A stretch of 64,000 nt of DNA from Candidatus Thorarchaeota archaeon (GCA_020348985.1 CP070761.1:1273747-1337746); one strand, 5' to 3'; positions 40,162 through 47,180 are shown, numbered from the stretch's first letter. Numbers and translations: made by a program. The notes: a model not told the origin generated them from the sequence alone.

Positions 40162-41344
40162 GTAGTTCGTTCATTGCTATTAGGCCACTCTTGATGTCAG
40201 GGTCGCTCATGCCTTCAGTCTCGGATGTTGCAGCTGATAGTAGAAGCAGCAATGAGATGAGTCGAGGAACAAGTCTTGAGTAGCGGAGAAGGAAATCTCT
40301 GTTACCAGTTGAGTCAACTATGAGAGATTCGAGTCTTCTGGATATCAAACCGAGACGCTCATCAACGCCTTCTGCCGGGTTCATACGTCTGAAGAGAGCG
40401 AGAACAGAGGCCTCATCCTGTAGGTTGCCCGCAGAGATTCCCATAGATTCGAGCTGCTCCAACGCTTCTGATGTCAGTGGTGTGTAGTGTTCTTCTTCTA
40501 CTCTATCAAGTCCTTGTTTCGCCGCTTGGAGCTGGACTAGGAACCGAAGCGAGTTGGTCAAAACCATTCGAAAAGAACCTGGAACCGTTGCAACCAACTT
40601 TGATAGAGCTTCCCCATTTACTCGTTCCAGGCGAGCAGCTAGTGAGGATTCCAATAGACTCTCAAAACCAGGTGAGAAAGCCACTTCGGCAATCTGTGGA
40701 AGACGAGTGTTCGTGGCGAATCTTCTGATCGCAATCAACGCCTTGTAGTCTGAGGGGGGTATGTAGAAGAGAAGAATCCGAACTATGTCGTATGCTGACT
40801 CGAAATCACCCTCGGTAGTGGAATTCCGTCCTTGATTTCTGCAGAGCAATCCGCTCACTAGTGCCCAGGCTGCGACCACGATTTCGCAGAGCTGGGCAAT
40901 CTCTTCGGAACTGCCGGCCTGCTGATCCTCCAAGAATTGAGATAGCCGTTCAACTCCTGCCGAAATGCGGCTGAGTGTATCCCCCCCAACTTGAACATTC
41001 GAGAGTGAAAGGATGAATTCTCTTGGATCGTGAGAGGCAGGTCTAATCGCAAAGGAAGGATTCTCTCTTGTCATTGTCCACCACTTGGTGGTTGACGCGA
41101 AGTAATCCAGAATGTCTATTGCAGTTGTGAGATCATTGAGGTCAGCGGCTGTTCTAGAGTCAAGAAAAGCCATCATTTTGGTAAGAAGACTTACAAAACG
41201 GGATAGATGAGCGGCTAATGGCTGTCCAGCATAGATGTGATCGGAATAACGGCCAATGACTGTCTCTGCTTGCCTTCCAGCGTCCTCACTAATCTGTGTC
41301 TGGATGAGTCCTCGGTAGACATCTATCGGCTTTCTGGACAACAC
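40151..41344 (-). CDS. Hypothetical all-alpha protein with four ~95-aa repeats
   Basis: Long ORF with GGAGA-type RBS; repeated helix-loop-D-helix pattern (see findings). Confidence 0.75.
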   Translation of the reverse strand: MLSRKPIDVYRGLIQTQISEDAGRQAETVIGRYSDHIYAGQPLAAHLSRFVSLLTKMMAFLDSRTAADLNDLTTAIDILDYFASTTKWWTMTRENPSFAIRPASHDPREFILSLSNVQVGGDTLSRISAGVERLSQFLEDQQAGSSEEIAQLCEIVVAAWALVSGLLCRNQGRNSTTEGDFESAYDIVRILLFYIPPSDYKALIAIRRFATNTRLPQIAEVAFSPGFESLLESSLAARLERVNGEALSKLVATVPGSFRMVLTNSLRFLVQLQAAKQGLDRVEEEHYTPLTSEALEQLESMGISAGNLQDEASVLALFRRMNPAEGVDERLGLISRRLESLIVDSTGNRDFLLRYSRLVPRLISLLLLLSAATSETEGMSDPDIKSGLIAMNELLSD

Positions 41345-41458
41345 CTGTCTCTCCTACATGACTGATCCCGCATTGCATAATGCCTGGTTGGTTCTTGCAG
41401 GATGGTCTTTTAGAACTGACAATATAAACCAGTGTCACACCGTTTCTACAAGGGTGCC

Positions 41459-42226
41459 TCAGCTTCCAAAACGCCGAGACCTTCGTTCGTAGGAACGCAG
41501 GGCACGCCAAATGTCAATCCTTCTGACTGCAGGCCAATAAATCTGGGCAAAGTAGAGTTCAGAGTATGCAGACTGCCAGAGGAGAAAGCCCGAGAGGCGC
41601 TCTTCGCCAGATGTTCGAATGATGAGATCTGGATCAGGAGTACCATTAGTGTATAGATGTCGTTCGATTATCTGCTCATCTATCTGTTTAGGGTTTAATT
41701 GCCCGTTTGACACTTTTTGTCCTATCGCACGAACTGCATCTACAAGTTCGGTTCTTCCTGAATACCCGATTGCCACATTTAGGATGTGCTCTTCATAGCC
41801 TCCAGTCTCAGCCTCTGCAGCAGCAATTGCTTCTTGTACGTCCTTTGGGAGCAAGTCCACTCTTCCAATAGCCCTTATTCTCACTCTGTGTCGGTGGACG
41901 TCAGGATTGTCAACAACTTCAGAGAACTTCTCTTTGGCGATCCCCATGATTTCCCGCACTTCATCTTCGTTTCGCTGAAAGTTCTCAATGGAGAAAGCGT
42001 AGAGAGTGCACACCTTAACGCCGGCCTCCCAGAGTATACGGAGGACTTCCATGACCTTCTGTGCGCCCCTATGGTGCCCAAACCACGGCGAGTCAGCACC
42101 GTGCTCGCGAGCGTAACGTCGGTTCCCATCAAGTACAAGTCCAACATGTCGCGGGGCATTGTCTTTGTTCAGTTGCCTGAAGAGCCACCACTCGTATAAC
42201 CTGTACACAGGTCCAGCGAAGTTCAA
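41459..42226 (-). CDS. uppS: cis-prenyltransferase (polyprenyl diphosphate synthase)
   Basis: LDGNRRYA, YAFSIENF.R, RTSGEERLSGFLLWQ, RRFG. Confidence 0.95.
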   Translation of the reverse strand: MNFAGPVYRLYEWWLFRQLNKDNAPRHVGLVLDGNRRYAREHGADSPWFGHHRGAQKVMEVLRILWEAGVKVCTLYAFSIENFQRNEDEVREIMGIAKEKFSEVVDNPDVHRHRVRIRAIGRVDLLPKDVQEAIAAAEAETGGYEEHILNVAIGYSGRTELVDAVRAIGQKVSNGQLNPKQIDEQIIERHLYTNGTPDPDLIIRTSGEERLSGFLLWQSAYSELYFAQIYWPAVRRIDIWRALRSYERRSRRFGS

Positions 42227-42309
42227 TCTCTCACACGTTCTCCTATATCATCGTCTACTTGGTTTGACATTTAGGCTTGCTGAATGATGGACAACTGAAC
42301 GGTACAAGA

Positions 42310-42681
42310 CTAGATCAGTTTCGCTATCTTATCAGCAGCGCGTTTCATGTCCAAGAATATGAGTCCAAGCTTTGCATTGGCCGTTGTTGACACGGTGATA
42401 CAGGCATTCATTCCTGCCTGTACAACGATTAGCCAACCGTCGGCGCCCTTTACATTCACCTGCTCAAGGTTCCCTTTGCCGAGCTCTATAGCTGCCTTCT
42501 CTCCAAGAGTCAACATGGCCGCAGTCATCGCAGCGACCTTTGCTTCATCGACATCTGTCGGCAGGGCAGATACAATTGGAAGTCCCTCAACGCTGACTAT
42601 TGCAGCGGCCTCAATCTCAGGTATACTTCCCTGGAGTTCGTTCAGAACGCCTTCAAGTGTGTCTCCACGGGTCTCGGACAT
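42310..42681 (-). CDS. Roadblock/LC7 (MglB-like) protein
   Basis: IEAAAIVSVEGLPIVS, VAAMTAAML.LG, AKLGLI. Confidence 0.92.
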   Translation of the reverse strand: MSETRGDTLEGVLNELQGSIPEIEAAAIVSVEGLPIVSALPTDVDEAKVAAMTAAMLTLGEKAAIELGKGNLEQVNVKGADGWLIVVQAGMNACITVSTTANAKLGLIFLDMKRAADKIAKLI

Positions 42682-42691
42682 CAGGCCTCAC

Positions 42692-43255
42692 CTACTTGTA
42701 CATTCTTTTTAGGATTACCTCTCGCGCTATGGCTTGAAAGGCTCGTTTTACTCCCACACCTTGAACAGCTATTGTCTCATAAATGGGAACATTGCCTCCA
42801 AGGCCGAGAAGATCTAGCATTTCATCGCGCGACATCCTGTTAGGCAAGTCACGCTTGTTGAGCATGACCACGATTGGAATCTCTCGCCCAAGGGCGTCAC
42901 CCAAAAAGAGCTTGAGCTCCTCAAAGCTTTCGGTATTCTCTTCTCGCTGATCTGGAGAGGAATCTGCAACGAAGAGAATCCCGTCAGTTCCCTGAAGCAC
43001 TACTTTCCTCTGGTGCCTGTGCCTCTTCTGACCAGCTACTGTGAAGACATCAAAGAGCACTCGACCCCCGGCGCTCATTGGAACATAGTCAAAGAACAGC
43101 GTACGGTTGGTTTCGTCCTCGATAGCCGTGAATTCTCCTTTCTGTAGTCCCTCAACCTTTCCGTACAGCCAGCGGAGTGCAGTGGTCTTGCCGCCTAATG
43201 AGGGTCCGTAGAAGACTAGCTTCAGATGGATTCGTCCCTTGTCATCTTTCCTCAA
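42692..43255 (-). CDS. MglA-type small GTPase
   Basis: KLVFYGPSLGGKTT, RTLFFD, TVAGQ, ILFVADS, NKRD. Confidence 0.92.
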   Translation of the reverse strand: MRKDDKGRIHLKLVFYGPSLGGKTTALRWLYGKVEGLQKGEFTAIEDETNRTLFFDYVPMSAGGRVLFDVFTVAGQKRHRHQRKVVLQGTDGILFVADSSPDQREENTESFEELKLFLGDALGREIPIVVMLNKRDLPNRMSRDEMLDLLGLGGNVPIYETIAVQGVGVKRAFQAIAREVILKRMYK

Positions 43256-43384
43256 TACTGCACCTCATTGTGTCGTTGCTGTTCGAATTCATTACGGAAT
43301 GAGCCAAAACCTAGGCTCCACTCCCGGAGGCAAGCAGTTTAGGATTTCAGTCCAATAAAAGCCTTTGTGGAATGGGAAGTGTGT

Positions 43385-43612
43385 TCAGAGGTCTGAGACG
43401 GCTGCGGCGCAAGTTCTCTTAATGAGAAAGACTAGGTGGATTCTCAGAGAGAGCATCTTTTGGGCAGCGCCTCGAACAATCGGTCTCTTGCTGTTGATCC
43501 TCAGTTCCATTCTGTAGTGATCAAGTGATCTTTGTCTCGCAAGCATTGCCTCAGTGTCGTTGAAGCTCTCTGTATCGCCAGTGCTTGATCGCAAGTAGAC
43601 CACATTGGTCAT
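43385..43612 (-). CDS. Possible small hypothetical protein
   Basis: 75-aa ORF divergent from the microprotein operon; no recognisable motif. Confidence 0.3.
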   Translation of the reverse strand: MTNVVYLRSSTGDTESFNDTEAMLARQRSLDHYRMELRINSKRPIVRGAAQKMLSLRIHLVFLIKRTCAAAVSDL

Positions 43613-43663
43613 GAATCTTATGGAAGTGTTTGTAAATTACGTTAAGAGTTAAGCTTGAATTAA

Positions 43664-43728
43664 AAACAAAAAATATTTAAGATGTCAGATGTAATACTAT
43701 TAGCATGCGAGGGAGGAAACTTCGCATG
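43664..43728 (+). promoter_or_regulatory. BRE/TATA promoter and 5' hairpin of the microprotein operon
   Basis: A-rich run then TATTTAAG (43674-43681); stem CATGCGAGG/CTTCGCATG (43704-43728) starts about 23 nt downstream. Confidence 0.6.
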
Positions 43729-43744
43729 AAGAGAAGGTGTTTGC

Positions 43745-43852
43745 GTGACAAACTCGGAAGAAAAACTAACCTCCCGATGGAAGGAGATGAATAGGCGTCT
43801 CAAGACGAGTGAGAGCCTATACTTGGACTTCAAGGAAGGAGGTGAGCAGTAG
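43745..43852 (+). CDS. Microprotein A (35 aa) MTNSEEKLTSRWKEMNRRLKTSESLYLDFKEGGEQ
   Basis: GAAGGTG RBS; stop overlaps the next GTG (TAGTG). Confidence 0.5.
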   Translation: MTNSEEKLTSRWKEMNRRLKTSESLYLDFKEGGEQ

Positions 43853-43962
43853 TGGCTCTAGCCAAGGACGCTAAGGAAGCGTCAAACGAGAAGATGAAGA
43901 AAGTGGCCAAGGTTCAGTCGACCGAGGCTCTAGCAAATGCATACCTGTACAAAAGAAGGTAG
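43852..43962 (+). CDS. Microprotein B (36 aa) MALAKDAKEASNEKMKKVAKVQSTEALANAYLYKRR
   Basis: GGAGGTG 7 nt upstream of GTG; similar to microprotein C. Confidence 0.7.
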   Translation: MALAKDAKEASNEKMKKVAKVQSTEALANAYLYKRR

Positions 43963-43980
43963 TAACGGAGGTGCATAAAA

Positions 43981-44076
43981 CTGGCAATTGCAAAGAACAA
44001 GAAGATAAAGCGACGCAATGCCAACCGTAGAGAAATCTCTACGAGGGCCATTGCTGACGCTTATTTCCGAAATTGA
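43981..44076 (+). CDS. Microprotein C (31 aa, CTG start) MAIAKNKKIKRRNANRREISTRAIADAYFRN
   Basis: GGAGGTG 7 nt upstream of CTG; shares MA(L/I)AK...ST.A(L/I)A.AY with B. Confidence 0.65.
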   Translation: MAIAKNKKIKRRNANRREISTRAIADAYFRN

Positions 44077-44092
44077 TCATAGGTAGATCAGG

Positions 44093-44221
44093 ATGGCTAA
44101 CATAGGCACAATGATTTCAGAGAACCTTGCCAATCAAAGGAGCCCTGAGCAAGGCAAGAATCATCAAGTTTTCTTCGACAAGTGTGCTCGTGTTGGCGAC
44201 AATATGAGCACACCCTTCTGA
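44093..44221 (+). CDS. Possible microprotein D (42 aa)
   Basis: ATG 16 nt after the stop of C, weak AGGT RBS; no similarity to B or C. Confidence 0.25.
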   Translation: MANIGTMISENLANQRSPEQGKNHQVFFDKCARVGDNMSTPF

Positions 44222-44725
44222 CATCTACACAGAGCTTGTTTTCGTCAAGGTGTCAACCTTGATTCTCATTCTTGTCTTCGTAACGCCTGGTGCTAGAGGG
44301 GTCAACAACAGTTGACTTAATTCTGCTTGGGAGAGAAAAAGCATACGAGATTTGCTGGAAGACTTTTCCAAAGGCATAGAACCTAACTTCATTCTGTAGT
44401 TCATCTCGGGCCTATTCTTGGGAAGAACTGTAAGGACGAATATCTGGATCAGTGCTCCGAAGTGATTGGCAACAGGCATCCTCACACCCACTGTCTTGAT
44501 TGCAATCTCATACCTCATGGGCTACTAGAGTGAGAGAAAATGAAACTGGGACATCCAAGTACATGATTAGAACTGCTGCCTAGTTTAGCCACCTTCACAT
44601 TGACCAGAGTTATTATGATTAACATACCCGGATTCAAATCACTAATGGAATATACAAAATATCAAACGAATAATGAAAAACCTTAAGTTGCGCTTGAGCA
44701 GCGCACTTCAGAGTCAAGGGCAGAG

Positions 44726-44809
44726 ATGAAGACAAAGCCCAAATCTGGACCAAGAGGCCAAAGAATCACTGAAGACATTTACGTCTTACTCAACAGTTCT
44801 TTCCGATAG
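44726..44809 (+). CDS. Possible microprotein E (27 aa) MKTKPKSGPRGQRITEDIYVLLNSSFR
   Basis: Preceded by BRE/TATA-like GAAAAACCTTAAG and a TGCGCT-N5-AGCGCA palindrome. Confidence 0.4.
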   Translation: MKTKPKSGPRGQRITEDIYVLLNSSFR

Positions 44810-44959
44810 CTGTGTTCTTTACATCAAACATTAACAGCGGAGGAATTTCATGAATCCAAGGTACAATAATGCTGATTGTTTCTTAAGCCGCGATTCATGA
44901 GAAGGCCTGATTGCTTGTCCAGTCTCGTGAATTCATAGTTTCCGAGAGGCAGATTACAC

Positions 44960-46762
44960 ATGTTGGAGAAAGAAGTGAGAAACCAAAGAATAAGATTGTA
45001 CACGCTAGCAGCGTTGGTCGGAGTAATATCTGGTGTGACAGCCATTGCTTTCAGAGGACTCATTTTGGTTGTGAGCCTAGTTTTCGTATCTCTGCCTGTG
45101 TATCTTGGATCCTGGGGGTGGCTTATCGCGCCAGCTATTGGTGGACTTCTAGTGTCAATAATTGTGAAACGATTCGCACACGAGGCAAAGGGACATGGGG
45201 TTCCCGAACTCATCGATGCCTATGCACTTCGTGGAGGAATGATACGGGCCAGGGTTCCTCTTTTGAAGAGTCTAGCCTCAGCCATCTGCATAGGATCTGG
45301 TGGATCCTGTGGACGGGAGGGGCCCATAGCACAGATTGGTGGTGGTGCGGGCTCTGCTCTAGCCAGTTTCCTTGGACTTAATCGCAGGATGACAAAGACA
45401 CTTCTTGTATGCGGAACAGCGTCAGGGATTGCAGCAACCTTCAACGCCCCACTAGGAGGAGCCCTCTTTGGGATTGAAATTGTGGCTGGAGGAATCGCAG
45501 GGTTCCCTATAGTTCCTATAATCTTGTCCTCCGTGATCGCAACTGCACTGGCCGATGCCGTTCTTGGTACACAGCCATCATTTCAGGCGCCTTTGTTCTA
45601 TCTTGACAATTACATGGAGCTGGCATTCTATTTGACATTGGGCCTGATTCTTGGGATAATGAGTGTTCTTTGGTCACGGGGTTTCTACCAAATAGAAGAT
45701 ATATTGGAGAGAATGAAGGGCTCGAAACATGCGCTCACTGCTTTTGGTGGACTTCTGGTTGGCGCATTGGCACTGTTGGCTCTCAACATTGAGGCCGCAT
45801 TCGGATACACAGGGGTCATGAAACCAGGAGAACCATACTTCCCAGCTATCATGGGGGTAGGGTATGCCTTTGTGGATGCCACTTTGCTTGGACTGGTCGG
45901 AGTCAGTGTTCTTGTTATGTTTGGTCTACTGAAGTTCTTTGCCACATCAATCACTCTAGGCTCTGGAGGGTCTGGAGGCGTCTTCGCGCCGACACTCTTC
46001 ATAGGTGCGGCATTTGGAGGAGCGTTTGGTCTTGTCATAAACATTGCATTCCCAGAAATCGTTTCTCAGCCAATGGCTTATGCCTTGGTGGGTATGGCAG
46101 CTCTGTTTGCAGGTTCGGGCAGGGCTCCAATAACATGCATCGTGATGCTCATGGAAATGACAAACGACTACTCACTGATACTTCCACTCATGGCTGCAGT
46201 CTCTATGTCGTATCTTGTTTCTTCTTCAATTGAGGTTGAGAGTATCTACACTTTGAAACTGGCTCGTAGAGGCATCGACATCAAACGAAGTCAATACGTG
46301 GGGGCTTTGAGGGAAGTGAAGGCATCTCAAGTGATGACTGCTAGCCCCACAATTCTGAAACCTGACATGACAGTTCCGCAAGTTCTGAGAATAGTGGATG
46401 ATACCCATCATACCAAGTTTCCTGTAGTAGATTCTGACAACAAGATAGTTGGCACATTGATCACAGAGAACTTATTCGGTGGGCCTGAGGGAGGCTGCCC
46501 GGAGTGTCTAGTGCGGGACTTGATGAACGTAGAGGTTCTGATAGTCAGTTCTGAAGCTACAATGGACAGCGTTCTACACGGGATGCTAGAACGAGACGAA
46601 GGGCATGCTGTTGTGGTCGATCCTTTGAAACCAGAGAGGATGATAGGTTTTCTGACGAAGGCCGATGTTCTCAGTGCCTATGAGCTAGCCATTCTAAGGC
46701 TGAGGGAGGACGGAGAAGATGTTCATGAGATTGATCCACTGGACATGATTGCTTTCAGATAG
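44960..46762 (+). CDS. ClC chloride channel/antiporter with C-terminal CBS pair
   Basis: GHGVP, GREGP, FNAPLGG..F..E, GVFAP, ESIY; CBS domains. Confidence 0.93.
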   Translation: MLEKEVRNQRIRLYTLAALVGVISGVTAIAFRGLILVVSLVFVSLPVYLGSWGWLIAPAIGGLLVSIIVKRFAHEAKGHGVPELIDAYALRGGMIRARVPLLKSLASAICIGSGGSCGREGPIAQIGGGAGSALASFLGLNRRMTKTLLVCGTASGIAATFNAPLGGALFGIEIVAGGIAGFPIVPIILSSVIATALADAVLGTQPSFQAPLFYLDNYMELAFYLTLGLILGIMSVLWSRGFYQIEDILERMKGSKHALTAFGGLLVGALALLALNIEAAFGYTGVMKPGEPYFPAIMGVGYAFVDATLLGLVGVSVLVMFGLLKFFATSITLGSGGSGGVFAPTLFIGAAFGGAFGLVINIAFPEIVSQPMAYALVGMAALFAGSGRAPITCIVMLMEMTNDYSLILPLMAAVSMSYLVSSSIEVESIYTLKLARRGIDIKRSQYVGALREVKASQVMTASPTILKPDMTVPQVLRIVDDTHHTKFPVVDSDNKIVGTLITENLFGGPEGGCPECLVRDLMNVEVLIVSSEATMDSVLHGMLERDEGHAVVVDPLKPERMIGFLTKADVLSAYELAILRLREDGEDVHEIDPLDMIAFR

Positions 46763-46880
46763 ATCTCCTGACGAAGACTAGGAAAGTGGGTTCTGGTGGG
46801 AGTCTGAATGATTACTGGTGTTGCATCTGCATCCATGACCAGATTCAATAGCGTATCCGAGTTAACCATAGTGAACCAGA

Positions 46881-47114
46881 TTGCAGGTATTGGCATATGT
46901 ACACACTGACAAAAAGGATTCTAGATGGAAACCCCGGAACTACAATCATGTAAAGGGACTGATTTCCAGCTATTTGGTCAATGTCGATTCTTCAGAGAGG
47001 ACCGGAGAGGTGTTTTTCTTCGATACGAGAGAGAACCTCGATGCCTTCAAAAACTCCAAACTGGGGAAGAGCATTGGAAAAGCTTTGGAGCTTGTTCAGC
47101 TCGAATTCGAGTGA
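46881..47114 (+). CDS. Small dimeric alpha-beta-barrel-like (YdhR-like) protein, tentative
   Basis: VKGLISSY...GEVFFFDTRENLDAF..S pattern. Confidence 0.45.
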   Translation: MQVLAYVHTDKKDSRWKPRNYNHVKGLISSYLVNVDSSERTGEVFFFDTRENLDAFKNSKLGKSIGKALELVQLEFE

Positions 47115-47180
47115 TTGGTATTTTTGCGAAACTGAGAACCCACTATGGGCTAGTTACTACGGATGGAAGTTTTAGTCTGT

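Follow-up and report, generated by a model that had tools for sequence, protein, structure and literature searches.

Asgard archaea draw attention as the nearest relatives that eukaryotes have among prokaryotes, and their annotated gene sets omit genes below ~40 codons. The described systems that come closest to the locus reported here are of several kinds. Trans-acting regulatory microproteins, such as sP26 and sP36 of Methanosarcina mazei and MciZ and SpoVM of Bacillus, are encoded by separately regulated, single-copy single genes of fewer than 50 codons, and their products bind a known larger partner. The leaderless multi-peptide operons of Firmicutes (aurABCD of aureocin A70, enterocin L50A/B and psm-alpha) hold tandem paralogous genes for cationic helical peptides of 20-45 residues, which are amphipathic or hydrophobic, act on membranes and come with dedicated transporters and immunity genes. 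Type II toxin-antitoxin operons are small, multi-copy, patchily distributed and frequently decayed, with repeat or palindromic operators, and basic leucine zipper (bZIP) proteins bind DNA through a helix that joins a basic region to a leucine zipper. Here we describe an operon of microprotein genes, A to D, that fills an apparently empty 560-bp gap in a 64,000-nucleotide stretch of the genome of a Candidatus Thorarchaeota archaeon (GCA_020348985.1, CP070761.1:1273747-1337746; hereafter, the window). The operon is real and unannotated, and two of its genes belong to a multi-copy peptide family that is restricted to one taxonomic family of these archaea.

The initial annotation, made from the sequence of the window, had described a TATA-type promoter followed by four small back-to-back open reading frames (ORFs), all of which are present as a compact unit on the plus strand. 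A search of 40 related genomes at the DNA level gave a single match, with 71% identity over 403 nt, in G016, a genome of the same taxonomic family that belongs to another genus. There the order A-B-C-D is kept and every insertion or deletion within A, B and C is a multiple of 3. With a profile of A, the unit of four genes was also recovered from four genomes of a third genus (g8), which brings the conserved order to five other genomes and three genera in all. Ratios of nonsynonymous to synonymous substitution rates (dN/dS; Nei-Gojobori, among four orthologues) were 0.22-0.47 for gene A, 0.13-0.29 for gene B and 0.15-0.29 for gene C, and substitutions were in excess at third codon positions (in gene B, for example, 7, 6 and 17 differences by position). 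By contrast with these frames, the antisense ORFs showed no conservation in the orthologous loci. Because A, B and C recur in five further genomes, take up only in-frame indels and have dN/dS values of 0.13-0.47, we regard them as real genes, which by these comparative measures are protein-coding and under purifying selection. The exact sequences of A, B and D were absent from a collection of 15 billion proteins. The proposal of an unannotated operon is thus borne out by gene order, substitution pattern and absence from the protein collection, and we hold it as nearly certain that the genes and the family described below are real.

B and C are paralogues within a genuine peptide family that has conserved ends around a variable basic middle, as had been proposed from the two sequences by themselves. 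The family consensus reads MA[LI]AK, then 10-16 mostly Lys, Arg, Asn or Thr residues, then [ST][ST]xA[IL]xxAYx[YF]RR. A first profile, built from B, C and their G016 counterparts, matched 75 of 86 genomes of the taxonomic family (gene B, E = 8e-14; gene C, E = 6.6e-15; the values for B ranged from 1e-9 to 8e-14 over the profile searches). Within the taxonomic family, a broader profile of 39 sequences (A4) matched 70 of 76 genomes, with every one of the 16 genera represented; among 224 genomes from 29 further families of the phylum, it matched none. It gave ~465 matches, up to 14 per genome, with open frames of 31-42 codons that stop directly after the RR motif; family members are about 30-37 aa long. 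Both B and C carry the terminal motifs and fall within 28-38 aa, with C deviating in its CTG start and in its FRN end, where the family ends in [YF]RR. The codons for MALAK vary synonymously, and the N-terminus is therefore conserved at the level of the protein. The genome of the window (G000) holds nine members, arranged as three pairs and three singles. In the short protein of the g8 genomes (L023 1501-1596, L025 1633-1728 and L051), Cys-Cys replaces Ser-Thr before the C-terminal helix (KKICC[RE]AIA), a change that takes two nucleotide substitutions for Thr to Cys.

The family is undescribed in databases and confined to a single taxonomic family of the Thor group of Asgard archaea. It matched 64 of 1.84 billion cluster representatives, none of them named. 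Searches of Pfam and NCBIfam with A to D gave nothing up to an E of 10, and those with the database 'fusion' proteins of 69-90 aa discussed below were likewise empty; a search of the ESM Atlas with B gave no usable match, and a literature search found nothing on Asgard microproteins. Profile searches of the PDB gave only non-significant matches to N-terminal tails (E = 0.8-2.9), the top ones being the basic tails of the nucleic-acid-binding proteins Pop7, eS1 and H3. Gene A is not detectably related to the family: it had been taken for a looser paralogue of B and C, and a profile-profile comparison (hhalign) gave this a probability of 0.05%. It is confined to the four-gene variant, which is rare, with matches in 6 of the 86 genomes (best E = 1.6e-20 to 7.8e-8).

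Table 1. Features of the operon and its flanking genes in the window.
Feature	Position	Strand	Remarks
Small-GTPase gene (MglA/Arf-like)	42692-43255	-	Left flank; divergent to ClC/CBS gene
Promoter region	43660-43703	+	A-rich stretch resembling a B-recognition element (BRE), TATA box and repeat GATGTcAGATGT
TATA-like box AAATATTTAAG	43671-43681	+	Within the promoter region
5'-leader hairpin CATGCGAGG...CTTCGCATG	43704-43728	+	Stable; folding energy given in the text
Gene A	43745-43852	+	GTG start, 35 aa
Gene B ('long' member)	43852-43962	+	GTG start, 36 aa
Shine-Dalgarno-like GGAGGTG of gene C	43967-43973	+	Complementary to the genome's own 16S 3' end
Gene C ('short' member)	43981-44076	+	CTG first codon, 31 aa
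D remnant	44093-44221	+	ATG start behind AGGTAGATC, 42 aa
Alternative D frame	44127-44207	+	Ends SVLVLATI
Terminator-like hairpin GTGTGCTC...GAGCACAC	44182-44213	+	14 bp; T-tract follows at 44236-44245
ClC/CBS channel gene	44960-46762	+	Right flank

The layout of the unit (Table 1) suggests tightly coupled translation. A and B overlap through the sequence TAGTG, which joins the stop of the one to the start of the other, and B and C are separated by 18 nt, with TAG-TAA and then GGAGGTG ahead of C. The GGAGGTG that had been pointed out before B and C indeed stands 7 nt before each start, and it is the exact complement of the 3' end, GGATCACCTCCT, of the 16S rRNA of the same genome. The start of B is preceded at 6-7 nt by GGAGGTGA and that of A at 6 nt by AGGTG, while the GGAGGTG before C is kept in G016 and in the g8 loci L023 and L025. 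Transcription is predicted from the TATA spacing to start near 43700-43704, so that the repeat GATGTcAGATGT would come after the TATA box and before the start. The leader hairpin has a predicted folding free energy (dG) of -14 kcal/mol (z = -6.3), and none of 200 shuffled sequences folded as well. The hairpin at the other end has a dG of -22.7 kcal/mol (z = -5.7). A pairing of the 5' and 3' ends of the RNA into a 'lock' was no better than in shuffled sequences in the five class-1 loci (the class defined below). We tentatively read the unit as an operon that is complete in itself, having a promoter, a 5' hairpin, Shine-Dalgarno-coupled cistrons and a hairpin/T-tract terminator of its own, and that would encode three working microproteins (A, B and C) alongside a decayed fourth (D).

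The window copy appears to be losing parts. The frame of C, open from the TAA at 43963, contains no ATG, GTG or TTG; its first codon is CTG, which is why C is missing from the ORF listing, and its orthologues start with ATG (G016) or TTG (g8 genomes). D, which had been counted as a possible fourth gene of 42 aa, differs in length by 2 nt from its G016 counterpart just 5' of the conserved end. In four orthologues D ends in DVLALEAT or EVLALEAT; in the window the frame is shifted, the conserved end (E/D)VLxxEAT is lost and the protein terminates in ...NMSTPF. Against its orthologues, the window D has a dN/dS of ~0.9-1.4, and the RNA hairpin that it overlaps is intact. On this pattern of substitutions and indels, the window D is best described as a frameshifted remnant, i.e., a decayed component and not a different architecture.

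Elsewhere in the taxonomic family, the usual module consists of a 'long' gene (35-37 aa) and a 'short' gene (29-31 aa), both basic, followed by D of ~38-42 aa. The long-short spacer was 7-25 nt in all 30 pairs examined in other loci, and the third gene was present in 22 of 22 pairs examined, except for decayed copies. D stands behind the AGGTAGATC motif and has a variable, hydrophilic body, with its last residues conserved as (E/D)VL[ALM][LW]EAT; the EAT codons vary at synonymous sites, which places this conservation at the protein level as well. The codons for E-V-L also form a hairpin with the 7-9 nt after the D stop, and a T-tract comes next. The same hairpin closes 28 modules, where 82.7% of cells are paired as compared with at most 51.5% when the partner strand is slid, and it covaries, with 17 double-change cells and 0 of 500 shuffles reaching as high. 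The window shares with the usual module the tandem of long then short, the third gene and the terminal hairpin, and both are unannotated and confined to one taxonomic family. The window differs in the extra first gene A, in spacers of 18-25 nt with a full GGAGGTG, in its own promoter and 5' hairpin, in the CTG start of C and in the frameshifted D.

In ten loci (L019, L020, L022, L024, L028, L033-L035, L025 and L002), long, short and D share one frame of 103-117 codons that is interrupted by a TAA and a TAG alone, each followed by two codons and an ATG. Although the body of D is highly variable, short and D add up to a nearly constant 69-73 codons. The shared frame may be a relic of one ancestral ORF or may reflect a constraint on spacing. 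The AGGTAGATC motif, which is the source of the in-frame appearance, is kept also where the genes do not share a frame, the window and G016 being examples. Eight metagenome gene calls of 69-90 aa (P0004, P0023, P0030, P0036, P0038, P0046, P0050 and P0055) join short and D with Q at the position of the TAG, and two of them also read Q after ...EAT. These calls derive from ENA contigs of 1.1-1.6 kb, and a near-identical locus has TAG; the 'fusion' proteins are probably gene calls made under a code in which TAG is read as Q. We rejected programmed read-through of the TAG, which is unlikely given that TAG is the commonest stop codon and that no suppressor tRNA, with a CUA anticodon, was found.

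The same data bear on whether the region might be non-coding, either a noncoding RNA or the wreck of one longer gene. Strong RNA hairpins at both ends of the unit, the ten loci interrupted by stop codons alone, the lack of a canonical start in C and the broken D would all fit such a reading. We nevertheless consider it scarcely credible: stops and starts occupy the same positions across genera and paralogues, third codon positions carry the excess of substitutions with dN/dS well below 1, and 12 of 30 long-short junctions are in frame, which is the chance expectation. The use of TAG as the commonest stop and the missing suppressor tRNA argue in the same direction. A scan of positions 41000-47000 against Rfam gave nothing but a chance match to SNORD82 (E = 0.89), and a tRNA scan found none in the window.

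At least three promoter/operator classes recur in front of the modules across genera. Class 1, that of the window, has a TATA box followed by GATGTnAGATGTAATA and a GCGA...TCGC leader hairpin, and carries gene A. Its promoter is nearly identical in five orthologous loci of three genera, and its motif occurs once in the genome of the window and is shared with no other gene. Every class-1 orthologue has the GCGA...TCGC hairpin with differing inner pairs, and formal covariation over these five sequences is weak. Class 2 consists of TAGTCACA-N3-TGTGACT, TGTGACCC and GTGGCTCCGC ahead of the TATA box; its core can also be written as GTCACA-N3-TGTGAC, TGTGACCC, GTGG[CT]TCCG and TATA. In class 3, GGTTTG-N6-CAAACC abuts the TATA box. 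Class-3 modules have the same flanking genes in at least five genera: they are convergent to a conserved UbiE-type class I methyltransferase gene and divergent to a gene for a protein of 249-265 aa, which gives weak winged helix-turn-helix matches (E = 0.002-0.02, below the Pfam cut-offs). In the genome of the window, the operator motifs are essentially confined to the modules. The exception is a class-2 promoter before a bactofilin-domain gene.

This exception is the one hint of a protein partner. The gene encodes 422 aa (L053 197-1541, G000:C1:2787096-2788440; Pfam E = 8.4e-12), and it shares its class-2 promoter/operator with three of the microprotein loci in the genome; convergent to it is a gene for an unrelated class I methyltransferase. 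Together with the weak winged helix-turn-helix matches next to class 3, it raises the question of whether the target of the microproteins, in trans, is not nucleic acid but a larger protein or assembly, for example the bactofilin cytoskeleton or neighboring transcription regulators. Known regulatory microproteins are of similar size and, like the genes here, are separately regulated and shorter than 50 codons. The parallel ends there, in that the family is multi-copy and its modules make two to four co-transcribed peptides. Moreover, a common promoter indicates co-regulation and not interaction, the class-1 promoter of the window is common to no other gene, and the window operon has no regulator or cytoskeletal neighbor. 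We therefore consider action on a protein partner unlikely.

At another locus of the same genome (L054 2719-4499, G000:C1:572218-573998), two copies of a class-2 promoter with a single short gene, ~85% identical to each other, flank a gene for an S41 C-terminal-processing peptidase, downstream of which lies a gene for a major facilitator superfamily (MFS) transporter. The peptidase orthologues in G007 are without these flanks, which makes the arrangement a peculiarity of this genome; it resembles the outcome of a duplication around a gene that was acquired. In G016 (L002 1357-2585, G016:C35), two modules stand head to tail beside the methyltransferase gene, a class-3 module with an extra family-like ORF upstream and then the class-1 module, each closed by a nearly identical terminator hairpin, which suggests that class 1 arose by tandem duplication at that locus.

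The variability of the modules calls for a comparison with toxin-antitoxin systems, or with selfish or accessory modules more generally, in which the basic peptides would do harm unless counteracted by a partner from the module, A or D. Copy number differs widely even within one genus (nine in G000, one in G001, which shares its genus, and 11 in G002), and the family was not found in some near-complete genomes, such as G004, nor in G082 and G084. Each module has its own promoter with repeat or palindromic operators; partial or decayed copies are frequent (single 'short' genes; the CTG start and frameshifted D of the window); and class 1 is patchy, present in 6 of 86 genomes and at a different location in each genus. 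In all these respects, the modules resemble type II systems. The proteins, however, are two to three times smaller than those of type II systems and are hydrophilic, which sets them apart from type-I-like membrane toxins as well; neither Pfam nor NCBIfam revealed a toxin fold (RelE, MazF, VapC, HicA or others) or an antitoxin DNA-binding fold (RHH, HTH, AbrB or Phd) in A-D at E up to 10. Furthermore, the flanking genes of class 3 are kept in at least five genera, a stable synteny that suggests vertical inheritance, a scan of IMG/VR with the class-3 'short' motif gave no match, and no mobile-element signatures or flanking repeats were seen at the window insertion described next. A role of this kind is, in our judgment, distinctly improbable.

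The position of the operon had invited a link to its neighbors, as it lies 400 bp from the MglA/Arf-like GTPase gene and 740 bp from the ClC gene in this genome, with roadblock genes nearby. If such a link existed, the peptides would modulate the GTPase, the roadblock proteins or the ClC channel. The comparison with relatives speaks against it. In G016, two roadblock genes and the GTPase gene are contiguous (L044). The operon has its orthologue on a different contig there, where it comes directly after a class-3 module and is convergent with the methyltransferase gene. In the window, a 3.9-kb block (43256-47180) interrupts the corresponding roadblock-roadblock-GTPase-roadblock cluster; it holds the operon, two unassigned minus-strand ORFs (43385-43612 and 44225-44518), the ClC/CBS gene and a 96-aa ORF, and judged by gene order it is a lineage-specific insertion into the GTPase-roadblock cluster, around which no mobile-element signatures, flanking repeats or integrase were seen. 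In G001, the corresponding gap is filled by ~1 kb of other sequence with no operon, so that both relatives keep the GTPase-roadblock cluster without it. The neighbors of the operon in the g8 genomes are TPR, DUF1028 or nitroreductase genes, and those of the other ~460 copies of the family are unrelated. As the adjacency is not conserved, the basis for a GTPase-modulating role is removed, and this reading is largely refuted by the missing synteny; we give it next to no credence. The G001 gap also contains pieces of a Ras/Rab-like small GTPase over two frames (L043 2681-3193; GEGDVGKST..., then ...LLAFDL...), which look like a frameshifted pseudogene.

The proteins themselves are short and strongly hydrophilic. 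The description of the microproteins as basic holds for B (net charge +5) and C (+8) and fails for A (0; pI 6.2) and D (-4 to +1). Grand average of hydropathy (GRAVY) values range from -0.6 to -1.45 across the peptides (B, -0.77; C, -1.06), hydrophobic moments are low for B and C, and no signal sequence or hydrophobic segment was found in the A, B, C or D proteins. AlphaFold2 predicts B as a single helix over residues 2-35 (predicted local distance difference test, pLDDT, 76), and 'short' members usually have a Pro or Gly in the basic middle.

These properties bear on a further suggestion, namely that the genes encode precursors of modified or secreted peptides, be it ribosomally synthesized and post-translationally modified peptides (RiPPs), signaling peptides or leaderless bacteriocins. 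A tandem of small paralogues whose ends are conserved and whose middle varies would suit such precursors, as would the conserved Ser/Thr residues, replaced by Cys-Cys in one genus, and the class I methyltransferase gene convergent to class-3 modules. In line with the initial annotation, which had noted no adjacent modifying enzyme, Pfam scans of the window and ~25 other loci found no RiPP maturation enzyme or exporter consistently adjacent (YcaO, radical S-adenosylmethionine (radical-SAM) enzyme, lanthipeptide enzymes LanB/C/M, P450, protease or peptidase, ATP-binding-cassette (ABC) exporter). The adjacency of the methyltransferase gene belongs to a larger conserved block and does not occur in the window, and a signal or leader sequence is lacking. 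Tandem paralogy, size, cationic helical character and the absence of leaders are shared with the leaderless operons of Firmicutes; the window peptides differ from these in their strong hydrophilicity, in the non-homologous partners A and D, in the lack of an adjacent exporter or immunity gene and in the lack of sequence similarity. Their GRAVY values of -0.8 to -1.45 and low hydrophobic moments are unfit for membrane-active leaderless bacteriocins or phenol-soluble modulins (PSMs). Processed or secreted products are thus highly improbable.

We favor, as a possibility that is itself rather doubtful, a model in which helices that are translated together combine into a small hetero-oligomer with affinity for a polyanion, either RNA or DNA. 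The helices would assemble via a C-terminal face of small and aromatic residues, A-[IL]-x-x-A-Y-x-[YF], whose residues A, I/L, A, Y and Y/F fall at positions i, i+1, i+4, i+5 and i+7, as in surfaces of the helix-helix packing type. The Lys/Arg-rich N-terminal halves would bind the polyanionic partner, most likely RNA or DNA, and distinct regulators would switch on the distinct paralogous modules. This model is favored because of the packing-type face, the tightly coupled translation of paralogues and the Lys/Arg-rich arm. Several observations weigh against it. No homology in Pfam, NCBIfam, the PDB or the Atlas backs any function, and AlphaFold2 gave no confident compact fold for a natural in-frame long-short-D read-through (pLDDT 61; predicted template-modeling score, pTM, 0.25). 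D is not consistently acidic, which makes a simple charge-neutralizing partner doubtful. Finally, with copy number varying so widely and G004 lacking the family, an accessory or selfish module fits better than a core nucleic-acid-binding factor.

A more specific form of nucleic-acid binding would make the long and short peptides minimal DNA readers, heterodimers of 30-36 residues that each combine a basic region with a dimerization helix. Such heterodimers would recognize the class repeats in their own promoters, i.e., GATGTnAGATGT in class 1, GTCACA-N3-TGTGAC in class 2 and GGTTTG-N6-CAAACC in class 3, and would autoregulate. Like bZIP proteins, the family members may have a continuous helix with an N-terminal Lys/Arg-rich segment and a C-terminal packing segment, and paralogues are made as pairs; unlike in bZIP proteins, whose zipper has four or more leucine heptads, the packing segment spans only ~13 residues, the N-x7-R signature is absent, there is no homology and Pfam gave no bZIP match for A-D. 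We regard the DNA-reader idea as very improbable. If it were true, no DNA-binding proteins with sequence specificity would be known to be smaller, and the peptides would be an invention peculiar to the Thor-group lineage of Asgard archaea.

Positions 1-24 of profile A4 also resemble residues 1-25 of histone H3 (MA.xK..RK..PRK.[LI][AS]T.A). The likeness scores 14.8 bits, as compared with a maximum of 10.2 in 5000 composition-matched shuffles; its PDB-wide E of 2.7 is not significant, and the N-termini of Pop7 and eS1 score like the H3 tail. The likeness is a curiosity, not evidence, and it would be still more speculative to see the peptides, through their H3-like halves, as tail-like decoys or substrates.

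For the window, these results dispose of an association with the adjacent eukaryote-like GTPase and roadblock genes that was tempting but lacked support. What they put in its place is a family that brings its own promoters, operators and terminators and that is a concrete and cheap target for small-protein proteomics and peptide biochemistry, its peptides being short enough for synthesis. In nearly every genome of one Thorarchaeal family, a whole multi-copy set of microproteins, maintained by selection, has thus been invisible to annotation.

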